The notes under the pieces are model-generated. The model had not been told where the DNA came from. It saw only the letters and a program-made list of their open reading frames with translations, and made no database searches. A stretch of 32,000 nt of DNA, from assembly GCF_000025685.1 (NCBI RefSeq), contig NC_013968.1, positions 53,093 through 85,092 of the forward strand, given 5' to 3'. This stretch comes from Haloferax volcanii DS2 (lineage in GTDB: Archaea; Halobacteriota; Halobacteria; Halobacteriales; Haloferacaceae). Below are positions 3,277 through 32,000 of this stretch, piece after piece. A program made the translations under genes and the position numbers. Positions within the stretch are counted from its first letter, which is position 1, and each line of letters starts with the position of its first letter.

Positions 3277-4524
3277 ATGGACGACGAGAGTGGGGACGTT
3301 GCCGCGGAGATTTTCGGCAAGCCGGACCCAATATTCGAGCAGAAGTCCCTCGTCGACGTCGACCACGTCCCACAGCCTGAACGCATCGTCGGTCGCGACG
3401 ACGAGATTCGCGCGCTCTCGATGCAACTCCGGTCAGCTATCGACGGTGGGTCACCGGAGAACGTGGTCATCTACGGCGAGACTGGGACGGGCAAGAGCCT
3501 CGTCGCGAAGCACGTCTCGAAGGTGGCCGAGAGCATGGCCGAAGACGTCCGGATCGGGACGGCGTATATCGACTGTAGCGACGACGACACAGAGACGCAA
3601 GCTGTGTCTCACATCGCACGGAAGCTGAATAACGAGGACCAAACCGGTGTCTCGGTCCCGGAGATGGGTCTATCGAAAAGTGTCTACTACACGCGACTCT
3701 ACTCTATTCTCGACGAACTCTACGATGTCGCACTCATCATCCTCGACGAAGCCGATATGCAAGCGGACGATGGTCTGCTGATGTCGCTGTCGAGGTCACG
3801 TGAGACGGGGAAAACGGACTGCCGCGTCGGTGTCATCGCTATTTCCAACAAGGTGCGGTGGGCGGAGAACCTCAACGACCGCGTGAAGTCATCACTTCAG
3901 CCCAGAGAGCTCAATTTCCATTCCTACGATGCGAACCAGCTTCGGTCAATTCTCGAACACCGGCGTGATGCGTTCCGGGGCGGTGTCCTCGAGGACGGCG
4001 TGATACAGTTGAGCGCCGCCCTCGCCGCACAGGACCACGGCGACGCCAGACAGGCCATCGATATCCTCCGGAACGCGGGGATGCTCGCACAGCAACAAGA
4101 TAGTGAGACAGTCACCGAGAAACACGTTCGCGGGGCTCGTCGGGAGGCCGAAAAGGACCGGTTCCACGACCTTATCGGTGGGTTGACAATCCAGAAGAAG
4201 ACCACGCTTGCGGCTGTCACGACCCTTCACAAGCAGACTGGGCGCGACGAGTTCCCAACCGGCGAGATCTACACGGCCTACACCAACCTGTGTCAGGTGA
4301 TCGGCGTCGAACCGCGGACCGAACGTCGGGTTCGGGATTTCGTCCGTAACTTGGCGTTTCTCGACGTACTCGACGCTCGAAAAGAGAACCAAGGACGTGC
4401 AGGTGGTATCACCATCTACGCCGGCCTGCAGCCCGCGCACGACCTCGAGATTGTCCACGAAATCGCGATGACAGACGACCGGTTTGCTGATGTTGACGAC
4501 TCCGAGACAACCGTCTCGAAATAG
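3277..4524 (+). CDS. orc1: Orc1/Cdc6 AAA+ replication initiator
   Basis: Walker A GETGTGKS, Walker B IILDEAD, sensor region DARQAIDILRNAG and a C-terminal winged-helix-like region, in the typical Orc1/Cdc6 layout. The ATG at 3277 is preferred over the TTG at 3241. Confidence 0.93.
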   Translation: MDDESGDVAAEIFGKPDPIFEQKSLVDVDHVPQPERIVGRDDEIRALSMQLRSAIDGGSPENVVIYGETGTGKSLVAKHVSKVAESMAEDVRIGTAYIDCSDDDTETQAVSHIARKLNNEDQTGVSVPEMGLSKSVYYTRLYSILDELYDVALIILDEADMQADDGLLMSLSRSRETGKTDCRVGVIAISNKVRWAENLNDRVKSSLQPRELNFHSYDANQLRSILEHRRDAFRGGVLEDGVIQLSAALAAQDHGDARQAIDILRNAGMLAQQQDSETVTEKHVRGARREAEKDRFHDLIGGLTIQKKTTLAAVTTLHKQTGRDEFPTGEIYTAYTNLCQVIGVEPRTERRVRDFVRNLAFLDVLDARKENQGRAGGITIYAGLQPAHDLEIVHEIAMTDDRFADVDDSETTVSK

Positions 4525-4533
4525 CAGCCCACC

Positions 4534-4796
4534 CACCCCTCGTTTCCGACGTTCATTCCAGCCGTTACCAGTTCCTTCCATCGGCGGTGGCCACACACGC
4601 ACCCCTCGTTTCCGACGTTCTTTGTATAGGTCCACCCCAAGGTGGGTTTCCGCTCTTATTCTAGGAGCAAACATTATTACATATGCGCCGAGTATCACTC
4701 AGTAGCCGCTTTTTAATTTTGAATTGGGTGGGACATAGTCCCGCCCATCAGTGAGTTTAATTCACCCTCTCACGAGAACGTCGGAAACGTGGGGTG
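4534..4796. other. Putative orc1-linked replication origin (ORB boxes flanking an AT-rich stretch)
   Basis: CACCCCTCGTTTCCGACGTTC occurs at 4534-4554 and 4600-4620. Its inverted copy GAACGTCGGAAACGTGGGGTG is at 4776-4796, with 1 mismatch. Each box combines a GGAAAC-type core with a G-string. An AT-rich stretch (for example GCTTTTTAATTTTGAATT near 4708-4726) lies between them, directly downstream of orc1. Confidence 0.6.
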
Positions 4797-5137
4797 GGGG
4801 TGTTGGTGTGTTGACGTGCAATCACATTCACGTTCTCCTACGAGGGTGTGTAGACCTGCCCCGGTTAGGTCCGAAGGAGCCGATGACTGAGAGACACAAA
4901 GACGGAGTCTGCTTAAATTCCTCGTATGGTCAGGTTCACGCCCCAGCTGAGATGGTATGTGGGGTACGATAGCACGGTCAAGAACGGATGGAATGAGACG
5001 ACCCACCATTACATAGGTCCGTCCCCACTCGACAGGAATATATAACCACTGACACTACTCTATTGCCCTTTGTCACCGGCCAGATGAATAACGACTGATT
5101 CGGCCAGAAGTCAGTTGGAGAGACGTTCAAACGAATG

Positions 5138-26034: not shown

Positions 26035-26386
26035 TAATACTAGAAGTAATCACTCACCTCCGAGGACAGTGAGTTGGTCAACAACGGTGTCGATCGCTGT
26101 TGTTAGCTCGTCAAGCGAGTCAAGGAAGCGGTTACTAAGTGCCTTTTGCAGTTGTCTCCAGCATTCTTCGACCGGATTCAACTCCGCTGAATACGAGGGT
26201 AGCGTTACGAAGGCGAGGTCGTCACGGGCCGCCAGGTTCGTGACGGGCGACGCCTAGAAATACGGCGCTCCATCCAGCACCACGAGTAAGTCATCTTCAA
26301 ATTCGTTACATAGTGCTAAAATGAAATGTTTCGCGTGTTCGGCGGTAACGTACTCTTCGAATCGCGAGAAGAAGCGATCACCGTCA
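26035..26386 (-). pseudogene. IS630-family transposase 3' fragment A (a distinct subtype, with an in-frame stop)
   Basis: The minus strand reads HYDGDRFFSRFEEYVTAEHAKHFILALCNEFEDDLLVVLDGAPYF*ASPVTNLAARDDLAFVTLPSYSAELNPVEECWRQLQKALSNRF...VLGGE*. It is truncated at 26386, where copy B begins. Confidence 0.7.
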
Positions 26387-26690
26387 TAGTGGCTAGCGTA
26401 ACTTTTGAAGATAGTCACCGAGGTAATTGTCGATCCAAGAGGCTGCGAAGCTCAGCTTGGTCGTGAGTTGCTCAAAGAGCTTGGTGAGGAGAGCGTGGTA
26501 TTCTGCCGCGCTCTCCACGATCAACGGCGACGCTTCCCATTTCAAGCTCTTCCAGACCTGCTCGATTGGATTCAAATCCGGTGAGCCAACCGGCAGAAAC
26601 ACGAGATCGATCCCTAGTTGATGGGCTCGCTTGCGCGTATACTCGCACACGTGTGACGAAAAGTTATCCAACACGAGTAGAATCCGGGCA
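26387..26690 (-). mobile_element. IS630-family 3' partial copy B (~300 bp, roughly 90% identical to the start of copy C)
   Basis: TAGTGGCTAGCGTAACTTTTGAAGATAG... parallels 26691 onward. It encodes ILLVLDNFSSHVCEYTRKRAHQLGIDLVFLPVGSPDLNPIEQVWKSLKWE... and similarity ends at GAATCCGG/GCA. Confidence 0.8.
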
Positions 26691-27844
26691 TAGTGCCTAG
26701 CGTAACTTTTGAAGATAGTTACCGAGGTGATTGTCAATCCAAGAAGCTGCGAAGCTCAGCTTGGTAGTGAGTTGCTCAAAGAGCCTGGTGAGGAGAGCGC
26801 GGTATTCTGCCGCGCTCTCCACAATCAGCGGCGAGGCTTCCCATTTAAGGCTCTTCCAGACCTGTTCGATTGGATTGAGATCGGGCGAGCCAACTGGGAG
26901 AAACACCAGATCAATCCCAAGTTGGTGTGCTCGCTTGCGCGTGTACTCACACACGTGCGACGAGAAGTTGTCCAACACGAGCAGAATCCGGCCGCCCGGA
27001 TTCTGCTCGCGGACTCCTTCGAGACATTCGCAAATCCGCTCTTTCTCTTGAGTGCTCGGAAACTGCAGCACACTCTCACCGGAGACCGCATAGAACCCGA
27101 CCGCTGGTTCGTCTAACTTCACCAGCGGTCGGGTGATGTGCGGATCATCCACGGTGTAGAGCCGCTGTGAGTTATCCCACGGTTGTGGATGAGATGTGTC
27201 GAGAAATCCAAGGACGGTCCCACCGTCCGTTCGGATTTCTTCGTCAACAACCCAGCCTTCGTCGTCATCTCCATCGCGTTTGTTGTGTGGCTCACCAGAC
27301 TCCTCGTCGAACGCGTCGGCGACGCGTTCGTCGAGAATCTCTTCGGCGTTTTCAGGCCGTGATGGACGCTTAGTCCGCGGAATTGCGTAGGAGAGACCGA
27401 GCTTTTCGAGGAAGGTACTCAGGTAGACCGGATGAAATTCGACGTCGAATTCTTGCTTGATAAGATGCTGTATTTCTTGTTTCTTCCAGGGCTGACCCTC
27501 ACGGAGAAGTTCCAAGAGATGCTGTTGTTGTTTTTCGTCGAGCTTCGGGGGCCTGCCGCCCCCGAAGTTCGGCATCAGAAGGCCGAGACCGCCTTTGTTC
27601 CATCGGCGTGCCCACCGAGTACCAGTAGCGGAGGACCTGCCGACGTCGTCGGCAGCGTCCTCCAAAGTTGCGCCCTTGTAAACTCGTTTGATGAAGATAA
27701 GCCGCTCAGTGAGTTTCTGGTCAGTAGACTCCATAAGGAGTCGGTCGAGATCGTCCTCACTGAGGTGACGGACGATCTCTTTGCGGCGATCTCCAGACAT
27801 ACTCACACATCAGATTCCAGCTTCATAACTTCCCCTAAGCACTA
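26691..27844 (-). mobile_element. IS630-family insertion sequence, complete copy C (~1.15 kb)
   Basis: Imperfect terminal repeats TAGTGCCTAGCG (left) and TAGTGCTTAGGG (reverse complement of the right end), each starting with TA. Confidence 0.8.
26697..27806 (-). CDS. IS630-family transposase (intact)
   Basis: 369 aa. It has an N-terminal HTH pair and a DDE core with DNFSSH ... NPIEQVW, typical of IS630/Tc1-type enzymes. Confidence 0.9.
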   Translation of the reverse strand: MSMSGDRRKEIVRHLSEDDLDRLLMESTDQKLTERLIFIKRVYKGATLEDAADDVGRSSATGTRWARRWNKGGLGLLMPNFGGGRPPKLDEKQQQHLLELLREGQPWKKQEIQHLIKQEFDVEFHPVYLSTFLEKLGLSYAIPRTKRPSRPENAEEILDERVADAFDEESGEPHNKRDGDDDEGWVVDEEIRTDGGTVLGFLDTSHPQPWDNSQRLYTVDDPHITRPLVKLDEPAVGFYAVSGESVLQFPSTQEKERICECLEGVREQNPGGRILLVLDNFSSHVCEYTRKRAHQLGIDLVFLPVGSPDLNPIEQVWKSLKWEASPLIVESAAEYRALLTRLFEQLTTKLSFAASWIDNHLGNYLQKLR

Positions 27845-28010: not shown

Positions 28011-28178
28011 TTGTGGCACATTTGATTTTATCAACGACGCATTTCACGATGGGTTCACGAAGTTCTCGGTAGTTTCAACAAGGCAAGCAACAGCATTTGC
28101 TTTTTTGTCGTCCGGTTGGTGTCAAAGCTGTCTCTCGCAACGGTCGTCAAGGTCGAGAAATAAGTGAGTGGCGAACAC

Positions 28179-28733
28179 CTACTCGTCGATCATCTCGCGG
28201 AGACGTATCGTACGTTCGTTCAGCGTCTCCAACGCTTGAGAATGACCCTCAACTTCAGACTCTAACGCTGACGTTCTATCTTCCAAACTTGAAAGCCGGG
28301 ACACCACCTCATCAAGGTCCTCAACAACCATTGATAGCTGGTCCCCACCGTCGCTGTCCTGCTCGTCTGCGAGGTCGTCAACGCGGTCGTGCAGATGGCT
28401 GAGCGCCGTCGACAAGTCCGACACCTCGTGCCGTAGGTCAGCCACATCCCCCTCGGAAACGCCAACTCGTACTTCGGTCTGGTCGTCGAGGTCACGAGCG
28501 ACGCGCTCACCTTCGGCGGTCAGCGCATACACGTTCGCAGGAATCGGAGCGCCGACGTCCTCCTCACCCACCTTCTCAATCAGCCCCATCTCCGCCAGCG
28601 ACCGCGCCTGTTTGCCGAGGTTCGAGGTCGTCATCTCACCTATCGATCTCTTGATATTAGATGTATTTCCCCGCCCACCACGCTCGTCGAGAGCCGACAG
28701 AATTTCCCGCTGAGTTTCGTTCAACTGCTCCAT
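28179..28733 (-). CDS. Winged-helix DNA-binding protein with a long C-terminal coiled coil
   Basis: The ATG at 28733 is preferred over the GTG at 28754. The N-terminus is MarR/TrmB-like wHTH: LNETQREILSALDERGGRGNTSNIKRSIGEMTTSNLGKQARSLAEMGLIEKV. The C-terminal ~90 aa are a heptad-like acidic coiled coil (VADLRHEVSDLSTALSHLHDRVDDL... LEDRTSALESEVEGHSQALETLNERTIRLREMI). Confidence 0.7.
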   Translation of the reverse strand: MEQLNETQREILSALDERGGRGNTSNIKRSIGEMTTSNLGKQARSLAEMGLIEKVGEEDVGAPIPANVYALTAEGERVARDLDDQTEVRVGVSEGDVADLRHEVSDLSTALSHLHDRVDDLADEQDSDGGDQLSMVVEDLDEVVSRLSSLEDRTSALESEVEGHSQALETLNERTIRLREMIDE

Positions 28734-28789
28734 ATCCAACACGAAACACGCCACCTACAAAATCATATTCCCTATGGAACGCCTTACGG

Positions 28790-29340
28790 AACAAGCGGCG
28801 CGAGGAAACAATGGCCTATGCGAACCAAACCACGCCAAGCGGCGACCGGAGGGGCAGGCAGGCCGAGCGTACGAGAACGACCAGAGAGCGAGCGACGACG
28901 AGAGGCGACACCAGTCACATCACAAAACAGAGAAGACACCCGATAGAGCGACGATAAAGACACCGGGGGGAACGTCACGAACCCCCCGGCAGTGACGCGG
29001 TCAGCGTCACCATGACACCGGGCACGGCGACGAGACTGGGACGTCGCAATGAGGGGAGAAACAGCAGCCACGGCAGAAGCGACCACGTCGAAAACGACAC
29101 AGGACCGTGGCGGCGAAAGGAGTGACGACCAGGACAACGCCAGCGGCGACCGAAAAGTGAGCGAAACGCGACCAGAACTCTGAGCCCGCGAACAGCGACC
29201 AATGGCGACCACGTGACGAGCGACGACGACGACGGTGACGGGGGCGACCGTGATAGAGAACTCCGTCGACGACGATTTACAAAACGAACCAGCGGCCGAC
29301 ACCCTACGACAGTAACGACGTCGAGAGCTAACGTGGCGCC
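28790..29340. other. Strongly T-depleted (plus strand) non-coding tract
   Basis: By my count there are 37 T in 28801-29340 (540 nt, about 7%). GCGACC, GACGAC and GAGCGA motifs recur. A GC hairpin CCGGGGGG-11 nt-CCCCCCGG lies at 28963-28989. ORFs appear in many frames on both strands but none looks like a haloarchaeal protein. Confidence 0.7.
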
Positions 29341-29745
29341 ACAGAATGAGTGTGGACTGTGGTTCCGACGGCGGAACCCCAAGAGAAACGAGAGCGAAAC
29401 AGCGGTCCAGATGTTGGAGGCAATGACCGTGGGGACACCGGCCTGCAAATGCGAGGACGAGTATCCGGTGGTGGTGAGCGAGCAGCGACGAGAACTGGCC
29501 TCACAGCGCCGCCAGTCATCTTCCGAGACGTGAACAAAGATGGGCCTGCCAGCAATGCAAACGTACCTGAGTGCAACTGTGAGCGATGGCGAGTGAACTC
29601 CCGGCCTATCGACGCCGATATCTCGAGTTCGATGACGATCCCGATGCCGGAGAGGCGAAGACGGGGACTGCAGAAGCGACGCCCCAATTGGACATATACG
29701 CTCACATATATGTCCACATATACGTTGACGGTGAACGCGAAACGT

Positions 29746-29765
29746 GAGACGAGACGAGACGAGAC
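29746..29765 (+). repeat. (GAGAC)x4 pentanucleotide microsatellite
   Basis: GAGACGAGACGAGACGAGAC read directly. The palindrome GGACATATA-8 nt-TATATGTCC lies just upstream at 29690-29715. Confidence 0.85.
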
Positions 29766-29924
29766 GTGGAACCCCAGCTGTACGCCTCAACCATCAAGAC
29801 TGCTGGTGACGATGGCCGGTGAACTCCCGCTCCGAGGGAGCGAGCGGATATCCCAAGCGAGCGACTGAGCGCGGTGCGGTGTTTCTGACGACGAGGCCAG
29901 GCCTCCATGTGCTGCTTGTCGAAC

Positions 29925-30053
29925 TGGTGGGTGTCCGTGTGAGCGATGCCCGCGTGGTGTCTGGCCTGTCGACGACCGTCTGGTGTCCGTGTGAGCGATG
30001 CCCGCGTGGTGTCCGGCCTGTCGACGACCGTCTGGTGTCCGACCTGTCGATGG
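29925..30053 (+). repeat. Tandem direct repeat (56 + 52 + partial 21 bp) with a 26-bp sub-periodicity
   Basis: Unit 29981-30032 (TGGTGTCCGTGTGAGCGATGCCCGCGTGGTGTCCGGCCTGTCGACGACCGTC) repeats 29925-29980 with one substitution and a 4-nt insertion. (T/G)GGTGTC recurs at 29929, 29955, 29981, 30007 and 30033. Confidence 0.9.
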
Positions 30054-30227
30054 CAGGTTCAGAGTTCAACGTGCGGTGCTGTTGCGTACGGCAGTCGCTT
30101 TGGGGGTTCGCGCCGACTCGCACCAGTATCGGTCGGTTTGGCGAGTTTTGAACCGAATACGTCGCATATACACATTCGTATATCCGGGGTAAGTGGCCGC
30201 TGTCGTCAAAAAGGAGCGGTTAGAGGG

Positions 30228-30572
30228 CTATTCGCGCAGTTCGGTGACTCCGCCGTCGAACTCGTCGAGCGTGACCCACGACTTGCCGCGCCGGAGTTGC
30301 GTCAGGATGGTCGTCGTACCGTGGCCGTCGGCCATGAAGTGAGCCTGCTCGTCAGGGATGTGGACACGGAGGACGTAGTCGTTCCGGGGCGAGAGGCCGT
30401 TCGGTTCGTCGATGCGTCGGACGGTTCCGAGGACGGGGAAGCCGTCGCGGAACGCGCCGCCGCCTTCGACCATGTGAATGACGACCTCGTCGCCCGTGTC
30501 GGCGGGGGCGGCCTCGTGCGCTCGGTAGGCGCTCGGGTGTCGAGTCGGGTCGGGGTAGTCGCCCGCCATCAT
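30228..30572 (-). CDS. Hypothetical protein (operon gene 3)
   Basis: 114-aa acidic ORF. Its ATG overlaps the upstream stop (ATGA at 30569-30572). No motif recognised. Confidence 0.6.
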   Translation of the reverse strand: MMAGDYPDPTRHPSAYRAHEAAPADTGDEVVIHMVEGGGAFRDGFPVLGTVRRIDEPNGLSPRNDYVLRVHIPDEQAHFMADGHGTTTILTQLRRGKSWVTLDEFDGGVTELRE

Positions 30573-30763
30573 GCGTCACCTCCGACGTCGACGACAGGGT
30601 GGTCACGGGCGACTCGTGGCCCCTCGCGACAGCTGGCGCACCGCATCTGCGGGTAGTTCTTCCCGTCGCCGTCCTCGCTGACGTCGACCCACACTTTCAC
30701 GAGGTCGTCGCGTTCATCACCGCACGCATCGCATCGGCCCTGACGGTAGGGTGCGTCGCTCAT
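30569..30763 (-). CDS. Small zinc-ribbon protein (operon gene 2)
   Basis: MSDAPYRQGRCDACGDERDDLVKVWVDVSEDGDGKNYPQMRCASCREG has two CxxC pairs. The ATG at 30763 overlaps the stop of gene 1 (ATGA). The Arg-rich upstream extension to 30928 in the track is overprinted on gene 1 and is rejected. Confidence 0.6.
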   Translation of the reverse strand: MSDAPYRQGRCDACGDERDDLVKVWVDVSEDGDGKNYPQMRCASCREGPRVARDHPVVDVGGDA

Positions 30764-31200
30764 CGGTCCACCTCCGCAACGCTGACGCCGACCATCTCTG
30801 CGACGGCGCACATCTGCCCGAACAGGTCTTCGCTCGCGTCGCACGTCGCGTTGGCGTGGACGACCATCTCGGTGGCAATCTCGTCGTGAAGGTCGAACAC
30901 GTCGCGAGCGCCGCGTTGTCCCGCGCACTTCGCCGTCGCGACGTGGGCGACGATGAGGCGAGCGGCGAGATCAACACCGAGCGCAAAGTCGGTCGTGGTC
31001 GCGAGTCCCGCCGCATTCAGGGCACAGCGTTCGTGGTCGACGCGGGTGCGAAGCGTCTTGAACGCGCGATGCTCGTTGTGCGTGAGGTCGTCGGCGTGCA
31101 GCGAGAGGAACTCATCGACTGCGTGGAGGTGGTCGGTGAGGTCGTTCCGTTCTTCGCCGTGCAGTACGACGTGAGTCGAGCCGCTGTTGTCTGCTACCAT
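30760..31200 (-). CDS. Hypothetical His/Asp-rich protein (operon gene 1)
   Basis: 146 aa from the ATG at 31200; the track starts at the GTG at 31203. It is acidic and His-rich (HVVLHGEERNDLTDHLHAVDEFLSLHADDLTHNEH). No motif recognised. Confidence 0.6.
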   Translation of the reverse strand: MVADNSGSTHVVLHGEERNDLTDHLHAVDEFLSLHADDLTHNEHRAFKTLRTRVDHERCALNAAGLATTTDFALGVDLAARLIVAHVATAKCAGQRGARDVFDLHDEIATEMVVHANATCDASEDLFGQMCAVAEMVGVSVAEVDR

Positions 31201-31354
31201 CACGTCTACTACTTACATCCCCACACACTTAGTAATAACGCCATAGCGTAATTAGAGACGACAGATACAGTCGTTCTGCCGAACAGCGCACCAAAGACGC
31301 CACTCGTGAGGTCGGTAGAACGGTGCTGTTGACTCGCCTGCTCGGTTAATAACT

Positions 31355-31487
31355 CAGACACCACCGTGTCGAGTGTGTCGTGTGGTGGGGGAGTCGTGTC
31401 GAGTGGATGAGTCGATTGTCGTGGAAACCGCATGACGGCAGTCGGATTGGACGAACACCAACACACACACACCGCGTGTCGAGTGGC
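31355..31487 (-). repeat. Left arm: three copies of GTGTCGAGTG (the inverted orientation of the right-arm repeat)
   Basis: GTGTCGAGTG at 31366-31375, 31396-31405 and 31476-31485. The first copy sits in ACACCACCGTGTCGAGTGTGTCG, the reverse complement of the right-arm unit. A (CA)n run at 31459-31472 precedes the innermost copy. Confidence 0.8.
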
Positions 31488-31645
31488 TAGGGGGAAAACG
31501 GGGTCGGGGGTCTGACGAGAGTCTATATATCAGCAATACCTTTACATGACAGTAGATATAACAGTAACCGTACTGGGAACAAAACACGTATAATTACGGT
31601 TGTTGTAGTAGTGAATTATTAACAACCGAGCTTCCGCGTCGCGTG
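31488..31645. other. AT-rich core between the inverted repeat arrays (candidate unwinding element)
   Basis: 43 G+C in 31511-31630 (about 36%) against roughly 60% in the flanks. An 8-bp inverted repeat CGGTTGTT / AACAACCG is at 31597-31604 and 31621-31628. Confidence 0.55.
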
Positions 31646-32000
31646 GTTGACCCGACCCACTCGACATACGGTGTGTGTGTGTCCATTCCGACCGTGATTC
31701 CAACACTGTCTTGCGATCTTCACCTTTTTTCTGCCGACCCACTCGACACACCACCCGTGCCACTCGACACACTCGTCACGGCAGTCCCCTGCACTCGACG
31801 CACTCGACACGGTGGTGTGTCCATTCGACGCACTCGACACGGTGGTGTTCCCCTGCACTCGTCACACCCGACATGGTGGTGTCCTCACTCGACGCACTCG
31901 ACACGGTGGTGTAGGTATTCGACACACTCGACATGAGGGTGTCCACTTGACGCACTCGACACGGGGGACCGCCCACTAGACACACTCGACACGATGGTGT
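31646..32000 (+). repeat. Right arm: array of CACTCGAC(A/G)-type repeats, with at least 7 tandem ~30-35 bp units, truncated by the window end
   Basis: Exact CACTCGACAC at 31740, 31761, 31801, 31831, 31896, 31953 and 31983. CACTCGACAT variants at 31648 and 31926. CACTCGACG half-sites at 31792 and 31887. The unit consensus from 31792 onward is about C(A)CTCGACGCACTCGACACGGTGGTGT. Confidence 0.85.

Follow-up and report, generated by a model that had tools for sequence, protein, structure and literature searches.

Genes around the right-hand end of the pHV1 record

We analysed 32,000 bp of DNA from Haloferax volcanii DS2, referred to below as the window. It is the closing 32,000 bp of the circular pHV1 record, 85,092 bp in length, and window position x corresponds to pHV1 position 53,092 + x. 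The window closes on an intergenic region filled with short repeats around an AT-rich core (Table 1), bordered on its left by a divergent gene whose operon encodes proteins with no family match in Pfam or NCBIfam. An exact-protein look-up with the 146-aa ATG-start product of this left-hand gene returned 10 contigs, and the same look-up with its 147-aa GTG-start version gave no match. One of the contigs (L003), 100% identical to window 29232-32000, supplied the sequence past the window end. We observed that the intergenic region measures 900 bp and ends at the ATG of orc10 (HVO_C0001), at window-equivalent 32101, that is pHV1 position 101. The product of orc10 is a 408-aa Orc1/Cdc6 protein (ADE05207.1 / D4H092_HALVD). 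In the published gene list, orc10 lies at pHV1 101-1327 with the mention 'associated to oripHV1/4', and orc8 (HVO_C0057) at 56369-57616 (Hartman 2010); these coordinates predict the orc10 ATG at window position 32101 and the orc8 stop at 4524, both of which were observed exactly.

A 408-aa Cdc6 gene, divergent from the left-hand gene and about 900 bp away from it, is present in all seven contigs that reach far enough, among the 10 returned. The near-identical Orc10 orthologue encoded by plasmid pHGLR3 of Haloferax gibbonsii LR2-5 scores 286.6 bits against the orc1/cdc6 model TIGR02928 (cutoff 181.3), with further matches to Cdc6_lid and to the C-terminal winged helix of Cdc6. An earlier note on this DNA, drawn from the window alone, had stated that no orc gene adjoins the repeats. 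This was an artefact of the window edge, orc10 starting 101 bases beyond it, and it is a reminder that a neighbouring gene can escape notice when a window stops where a circular record has been arbitrarily opened. When the sequence was extended rightward, as the same note had proposed in search of the array end and a rep or par gene, the end of the array was indeed found; the gene met there was orc10, not rep or par.

Three further elements were noticed to the left of the operon. A minus-strand gene at 28179-28754 encodes a 191-aa protein with a winged helix at its N-terminus (weak matches to HxlR and HTH_27) and a coiled coil at its C-terminus, annotated in pHGLR3 as 'chromosome segregation protein'. 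Between this gene and the operon, in a stretch of about 1.4 kb without convincing genes, there is a 52-bp tandem repeat at 29930-30059 (2.2 copies, 98% identity), with a 26-bp unit (GGTGTCCG...GTCGACGACCGTCT) nested in it; this stretch lies inside a block 94.6% identical to pHGLR3. Finally, 26385-26991 holds a tandem duplication of 304 bp (2 copies, 89% identity) that overlaps an IS630-like DDE_3 transposase ORF (minus strand, 26697-27806) at its 3' end and repeats the C-terminal coding part. It probably arose by a partial duplication, or is what is left of a second IS copy.

Table 1. Features of the intergenic region and of its left-hand border, in window coordinates.
Feature	Coordinates	Strand	Description
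Left neighbour gene, divergent	30760..31200	-	146 aa, ADE05221.1 / D4H0G7_HALVD; first of 3-gene operon 30228-31200
Intergenic region holding ori-pHV1/4	31201..32000		extends 100 bp past the window to the orc10 start codon
Outer left unit	31357..31390	-	full unit: ACACCACC, GTGTCGAGTG, GTGTCGTGTG, then G-string
Second left repeat	31395..31418	-	GTGTCGAGTG, then degenerate second half GTCGATTG
Innermost left repeat, flanks the DUE	31461..31509	-	(CA)5 run, CCGCGTGTCGAGTGG, then G-strings (GGGGGAAAACGGGGTCGGGGG)
DNA unwinding element (DUE)	31522..31625		highest A/T content of any 104-bp stretch in the intergenic region, 68.3%
8-bp inverted repeat in core	31597..31628		CGGTTGTT 31597-31604, 16-bp spacer, AACAACCG 31621-31628
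Innermost right repeat, flanks the DUE	31646..31682	+	GACCCGACCCACTCGACATACG, then (GT)6 run
Two more right-hand repeats	31734..31781	+	CCGACCCACTCGACAC and CCACTCGACACACTCGTCACGG; families D2, D4
Tandem array	31785..32000	+	7 units in the window, 28-34 bp spacing; families D1, D2

Repeats, polarity and the AT-rich core

Exact copies of the motif CACTCGACR number 15 across the 32 kb of the window, where 1.82 would be expected; in 100 shuffles that preserved the dinucleotides, a count of 15 was never reached. Three copies lie to the left of the AT-rich core, all on the minus strand (31367-31375, 31397-31405 and 31477-31485), while the eleven to its right, spread over 31658-31991, are all on the plus strand. 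The orientation is thus perfectly polar, with one direction on each side of the core, and the two sides are mutually inverted. All the repeats point to the DUE, three from the left and about 12 from the orc10 side. With one mismatch tolerated, CACTCGACAC gave 20 matches, against 5.1 expected. A stray CACTCGACR was observed at 5026, inside the 11-mer CCCACTCGACA, which does occur at 5024 as the earlier note had pointed out. A link between the two pHV1 origins through this 11-mer was considered but not retained, since a single isolated copy of the 9-mer core is no more than chance would give (1.8 expected).

The inverted repeats on either side of the DUE were confirmed with a repeat finder (pairs I1-I9). 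The left units are the reverse complements of the right ones, pairs I3-I7 being 82-93% complementary, and the outer left unit matches right-hand units at 82-93% (pairs I3, I5, I6 and I7). The right-hand units are doublets of the 9-bp half-site plus YGGTGGTGT. In the innermost pair (I4), 31461-31492 faces 31651-31682 over 32 nt with 88% complementarity, and its arms carry (CA)5 at 31462-31471 and (GT)6 at 31671-31682. The earlier note had thus described correctly both the inverted arrays, with three copies on the left and at least eleven on the right, and the innermost inverted repeat with its (CA)n/(GT)n runs.

On the orc10 side, each unit of the tandem array reads CAYTCGACR, then CACTCGACA, then YGGTGGTGT. 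Over 31792-32000, Tandem Repeats Finder returned 6.9 copies with a period of 30 bp, in agreement with the ~30-bp tandem units first noticed there, and a 64-bp super-period at 31760-32000; the ~30-bp spacing amounts to about three helical turns. The array had been seen to run off the window end, because this end is the arbitrary coordinate origin of the circular pHV1 record. In contig L003, about two further units were read at 32002-32046; the array then stops, ~46 bp beyond the window end and ~55 bp upstream of the orc10 ATG, and a TTTAAT element lies between the array end and the start codon.

The core has a GC content of 33.6% over 31516-31625 and of 38.9% over 31510-31640, for a window mean of roughly 55%. 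A core of about 36% GC with an 8-bp inverted repeat of its own had been claimed, and both are present. This inverted repeat is kept in Haloferax sp. Q22, and in pHGLR3 its left arm carries one substitution (CGGTTGTT to a CGGTTGTTA-type sequence, read as cggttgtta). The region 31000-32000 was also compared with Rfam at a permissive threshold; it matched no RNA family, and a reading as a known RNA was dropped.

The repeat core CACTCGAC is unlike the ORB core TCCAGTGGAAAC, although G-strings are present: GGGGG runs start at 31387, 31490, 31506 and 31963. Moreover, a single exact mini-ORB core, GTGGAAAC, is found at 31421-31428 in the left arm. The claim that the region is devoid of GGAAAC and of G-strings was therefore wrong, and the difference claimed between its repeats and the ORB boxes beside the other orc gene of the window is real. 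Conservation of the GTGGAAAC site is not strict, since both pHGLR3 and Haloferax sp. Q22 have GTGAAAAC in its place; the match may have arisen by chance, or it may be a vestigial or secondary binding site of a different Orc paralogue. As for the other orc gene, orc8 lies at window 3277-4524 on the plus strand, with canonical-looking ORB boxes directly downstream (4525-4830), in the order CACCCCTCGTTTCCGACGTTC twice plus a GGGTTTCCGC copy, an AT-rich stretch, and an inverted GAACGTCGGAAACGTGGGGTGGGGG. H. volcanii orc8 figures among the origins with ORBs downstream of the orc gene (Wu et al. 2012), and 4525-4830 is a candidate 'alternative origin' by which pHV1 would persist without ori-pHV1/4 in strain H230.

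Correspondence with ori-pHV1/4

We conclude that the region is almost certainly ori-pHV1/4, the Orc1/Cdc6-type origin from which the 85-kb mini-chromosome pHV1 of H. volcanii DS2 is replicated, because the gene names, the coordinates and the measurements match. The origin at 31201-32000 is thus already known, having been published by Norais et al. (Norais 2007, PMC1868953; PLoS Genet 3:e77), who recovered it as the only ARS from two independent genomic libraries. They described a 910-bp intergenic region separating orc10 from a divergent gene, a 104-bp A/T-rich putative DUE (68% A/T), 13 non-canonical ORB-like repeats, and GT-stretches after the two repeats that flank the DUE (Norais 2007, PMC1868953). 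The locus, the replicon, the adjoining gene orc10 / HVO_C0001 and the size and composition of the DUE are the same in our analysis, as are the non-canonical repeats and the GT runs beside the two DUE-flanking repeats, the (CA)5 and (GT)6 runs sitting directly beside the two innermost repeats as reported. We counted ~15 repeat units where 13 were published, and 900 bp of intergenic DNA where 910 bp were given; these are differences of annotation and counting, nothing substantive. The published repeats were said to have 'only little similarity' to ORB, yet a mini-ORB core was annotated in all 13 (Norais 2007, PMC1868953). Later reviews pair Orc10 / HVO_C0001 with ori-pHV1, and two orc-associated origins were counted on pHV1 (Wu et al. 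2012).

ARS activity was reported for the 5-kb insert of pTA194, for the minimal AciI fragment of the 1-1.3 kb class (1.1-kb), which includes the intergenic region (pTA250), and for a 633-bp PCR fragment (pCN12) (Norais 2007, PMC1868953). The intergenic DNA alone is sufficient for autonomous replication and, since the 633-bp fragment of pCN12 replicates, orc10 is not needed in cis; orc10 is moreover dispensable and can be deleted (Hartman 2010; Norais 2007, PMC1868953). [quoted passage not shown] Autonomous replication and initiation-point mapping, two experiments that the earlier note had proposed, had therefore both been published in 2007. In the same study, loss of the origin was strongly selected against, its deletion being obtained >1,000-fold more rarely than a return to the wild type, yet pHV1 survives the deletion; ori-pHV1/4 was dominant over oriC1 plasmids in co-transformation; and the plasmid carrying the intergenic region (pTA250), less stable than oriC1 plasmids, was lost at 16% per generation (Norais 2007, PMC1868953).

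With the haloarchaeal oriC1-type origins (Halo-ORB consensus GTTCCAGTGGAAAC-AAA----GGGGG), ori-pHV1/4 has in common an AT-rich DUE between inverted repeats with G-strings, an adjacent orc1/cdc6 gene and ARS activity. It differs from them by its core, CACTCGAC(A/G), usually doubled and followed by GGTGGTGT, instead of TCCAGTGGAAAC, and by its strong asymmetry, with 3 repeats against ~12 and a regular tandem array on the orc side. It differs also in being dominant over oriC1 in co-transformation, though its plasmids are less stable and of lower copy number.

The earlier note had proposed an iteron-type origin or a partition site; replication origin is the part that stands, and neither the Rep-type iteron label nor the centromere does. 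In a Rep-type iteron origin the tandem repeats would bind a dedicated non-Orc Rep initiator and no orc gene would be involved. Such a reading is attractive insofar as ~30-bp tandem direct repeats adjoin an AT-rich segment and differ from the canonical ORB boxes. However, an Orc1/Cdc6 gene starts ~55 bp past the array end, a linkage kept in three Haloferax genomes; no rep gene was found on either side of the origin, and the proteins of the left-hand operon, which belong to no family, are unlinked to the origin in Q22. We consider this reading very improbable. The comparison with bacterial iteron plasmids (pPS10, F, R6K, P1) remains instructive as to the layout: in these plasmids likewise, tandem initiator sites stand beside an AT-rich region, upstream of the initiator gene, an arrangement that allows autoregulation and titration. 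In ori-pHV1/4, in contrast, the initiator gene encodes an AAA+ Orc1/Cdc6 and not a Rep winged-helix dimer/monomer, and there are no DnaA boxes.

That the arrays form a centromere, or partition site, which would bind a segregation adaptor and stabilise pHV1, can be argued from the resemblance of short repeats in inverted blocks to some parS or parC sites, and from the winged-helix/coiled-coil protein bearing the 'chromosome segregation protein' annotation 2.6 kb to the left. This is hardly probable either: plasmids with just the intergenic region are lost at the rate given above (Norais 2007, PMC1868953), no ParA/ParB family protein was found among the neighbouring ORFs, and the annotation stems from a weak coiled-coil likeness to SMC models (E ~1e-3, scores far below the cutoffs) and should not be read as evidence of a partition system. 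Least probable of all, to the point of being negligible, is that the array belongs to a repeat-protein gene and that the HSTHSTRW-type ORFs are real. ORFs of 55-97 aa do cross the array on both strands, but they overlap in several frames, which is typical of repeat DNA, and no gene is called across the array in any of the 10 assemblies, in line with their initial dismissal as artefacts. In addition, the indel of pHGLR3 measures 64 bp, which is not a multiple of three, and the region is a proven non-coding ARS (Norais 2007, PMC1868953).

The origin-plus-orc10 module and a probable role for Orc10

Window 28166-31907 aligns at 94.6% identity with the terminal part of pHGLR3 (NZ_CP063208.1). This circular record closes with the very bases that close the window (...cgatggtgt), and its first gene (101-1324), annotated as coding for a 407-aa 'AAA family ATPase', is the Orc10 orthologue scored above. 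In pHGLR3, exactly 64 bp are missing, that is two array units (window 31825-31888); the number of array units varies between strains. When genome contigs were searched with Orc10, a scan that did not return H. volcanii DS2 itself, the only match was in Haloferax sp. Q22, where the module occupies 860-2887 of contig L013 (NZ_LOEP01000025.1) and the Orc is 100% identical over the best aligned segment. The pHGLR3 and Q22 loci are orthologous origin-plus-orc10 modules, that of pHGLR3 being two array units shorter. The left-hand neighbour is a different one in Q22, the 146-aa gene being unlinked to the origin there; homology between pHV1 and Q22 starts near window 31330 and the flank diverges further left, which sets the left edge of the putatively mobile origin-plus-orc10 module at ~31330. 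In another Haloferax strain, the module lies on a 3.7-Mb contig, the one carrying QIB79085.1, which suggests a chromosomal integration. Together, the Q22 flank and the 3.7-Mb contig suggest that the origin travels jointly with its initiator from one replicon to another; the signals seen on pHV1 as well as pHV4 in a published Southern blot are consistent with this.

The earlier note had also proposed a search of the repeat unit among haloarchaeal plasmids. In PLSDB, a collection evidently without pHV1, only pHGLR3 matched in near and distant modes, and no match was obtained in the phage collection. The unit is thus no satellite dispersed over the other haloarchaeal plasmids of PLSDB, and a reading as a provirus or viral terminus was dropped for want of a match in the phage collection.

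As regards the mechanism at ori-pHV1/4, an Orc1/Cdc6 protein would bind the repeats, bend and melt the DUE and load MCM. Among the 16 Orc paralogues, Orc10 appears to be the likeliest binder, because pHGLR3 and Q22 have both kept orc10 with the origin, whereas the left-hand operon is replaced in Q22. The pairing of distinct Orc/Cdc6 proteins with distinct ORB elements (Wu et al. 2012) fits such a role for Orc10. In the literature on ori-pHV1/4 we found no published result on the binding of Orc10 to DNA. Since the array sits immediately before the orc10 promoter region, its occupancy by the initiator is probably coupled to orc10 expression and may feed back on it.

More tentatively, the ~12-unit array may act in an iteron-like manner, by titration or autoregulation, sequestering Orc or shared replication factors and repressing orc10. 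We regard this as possible but rather unlikely; it would accord with where the array lies, directly ahead of the orc10 promoter region, and with the differing number of array units among strains.

Isolated in 2007, ori-pHV1/4 was the first ARS obtained from H. volcanii, and it is the origin of the pTA250-derived, low-copy shuttle vectors widely used in Haloferax. To this, the comparison of strains adds that the origin and orc10 travel as a module and that the number of repeat units differs between strains. If the array does behave like an iteron array, this would explain that ori-pHV1/4 plasmids displace oriC1 plasmids and yet are of lower copy number and less stable.
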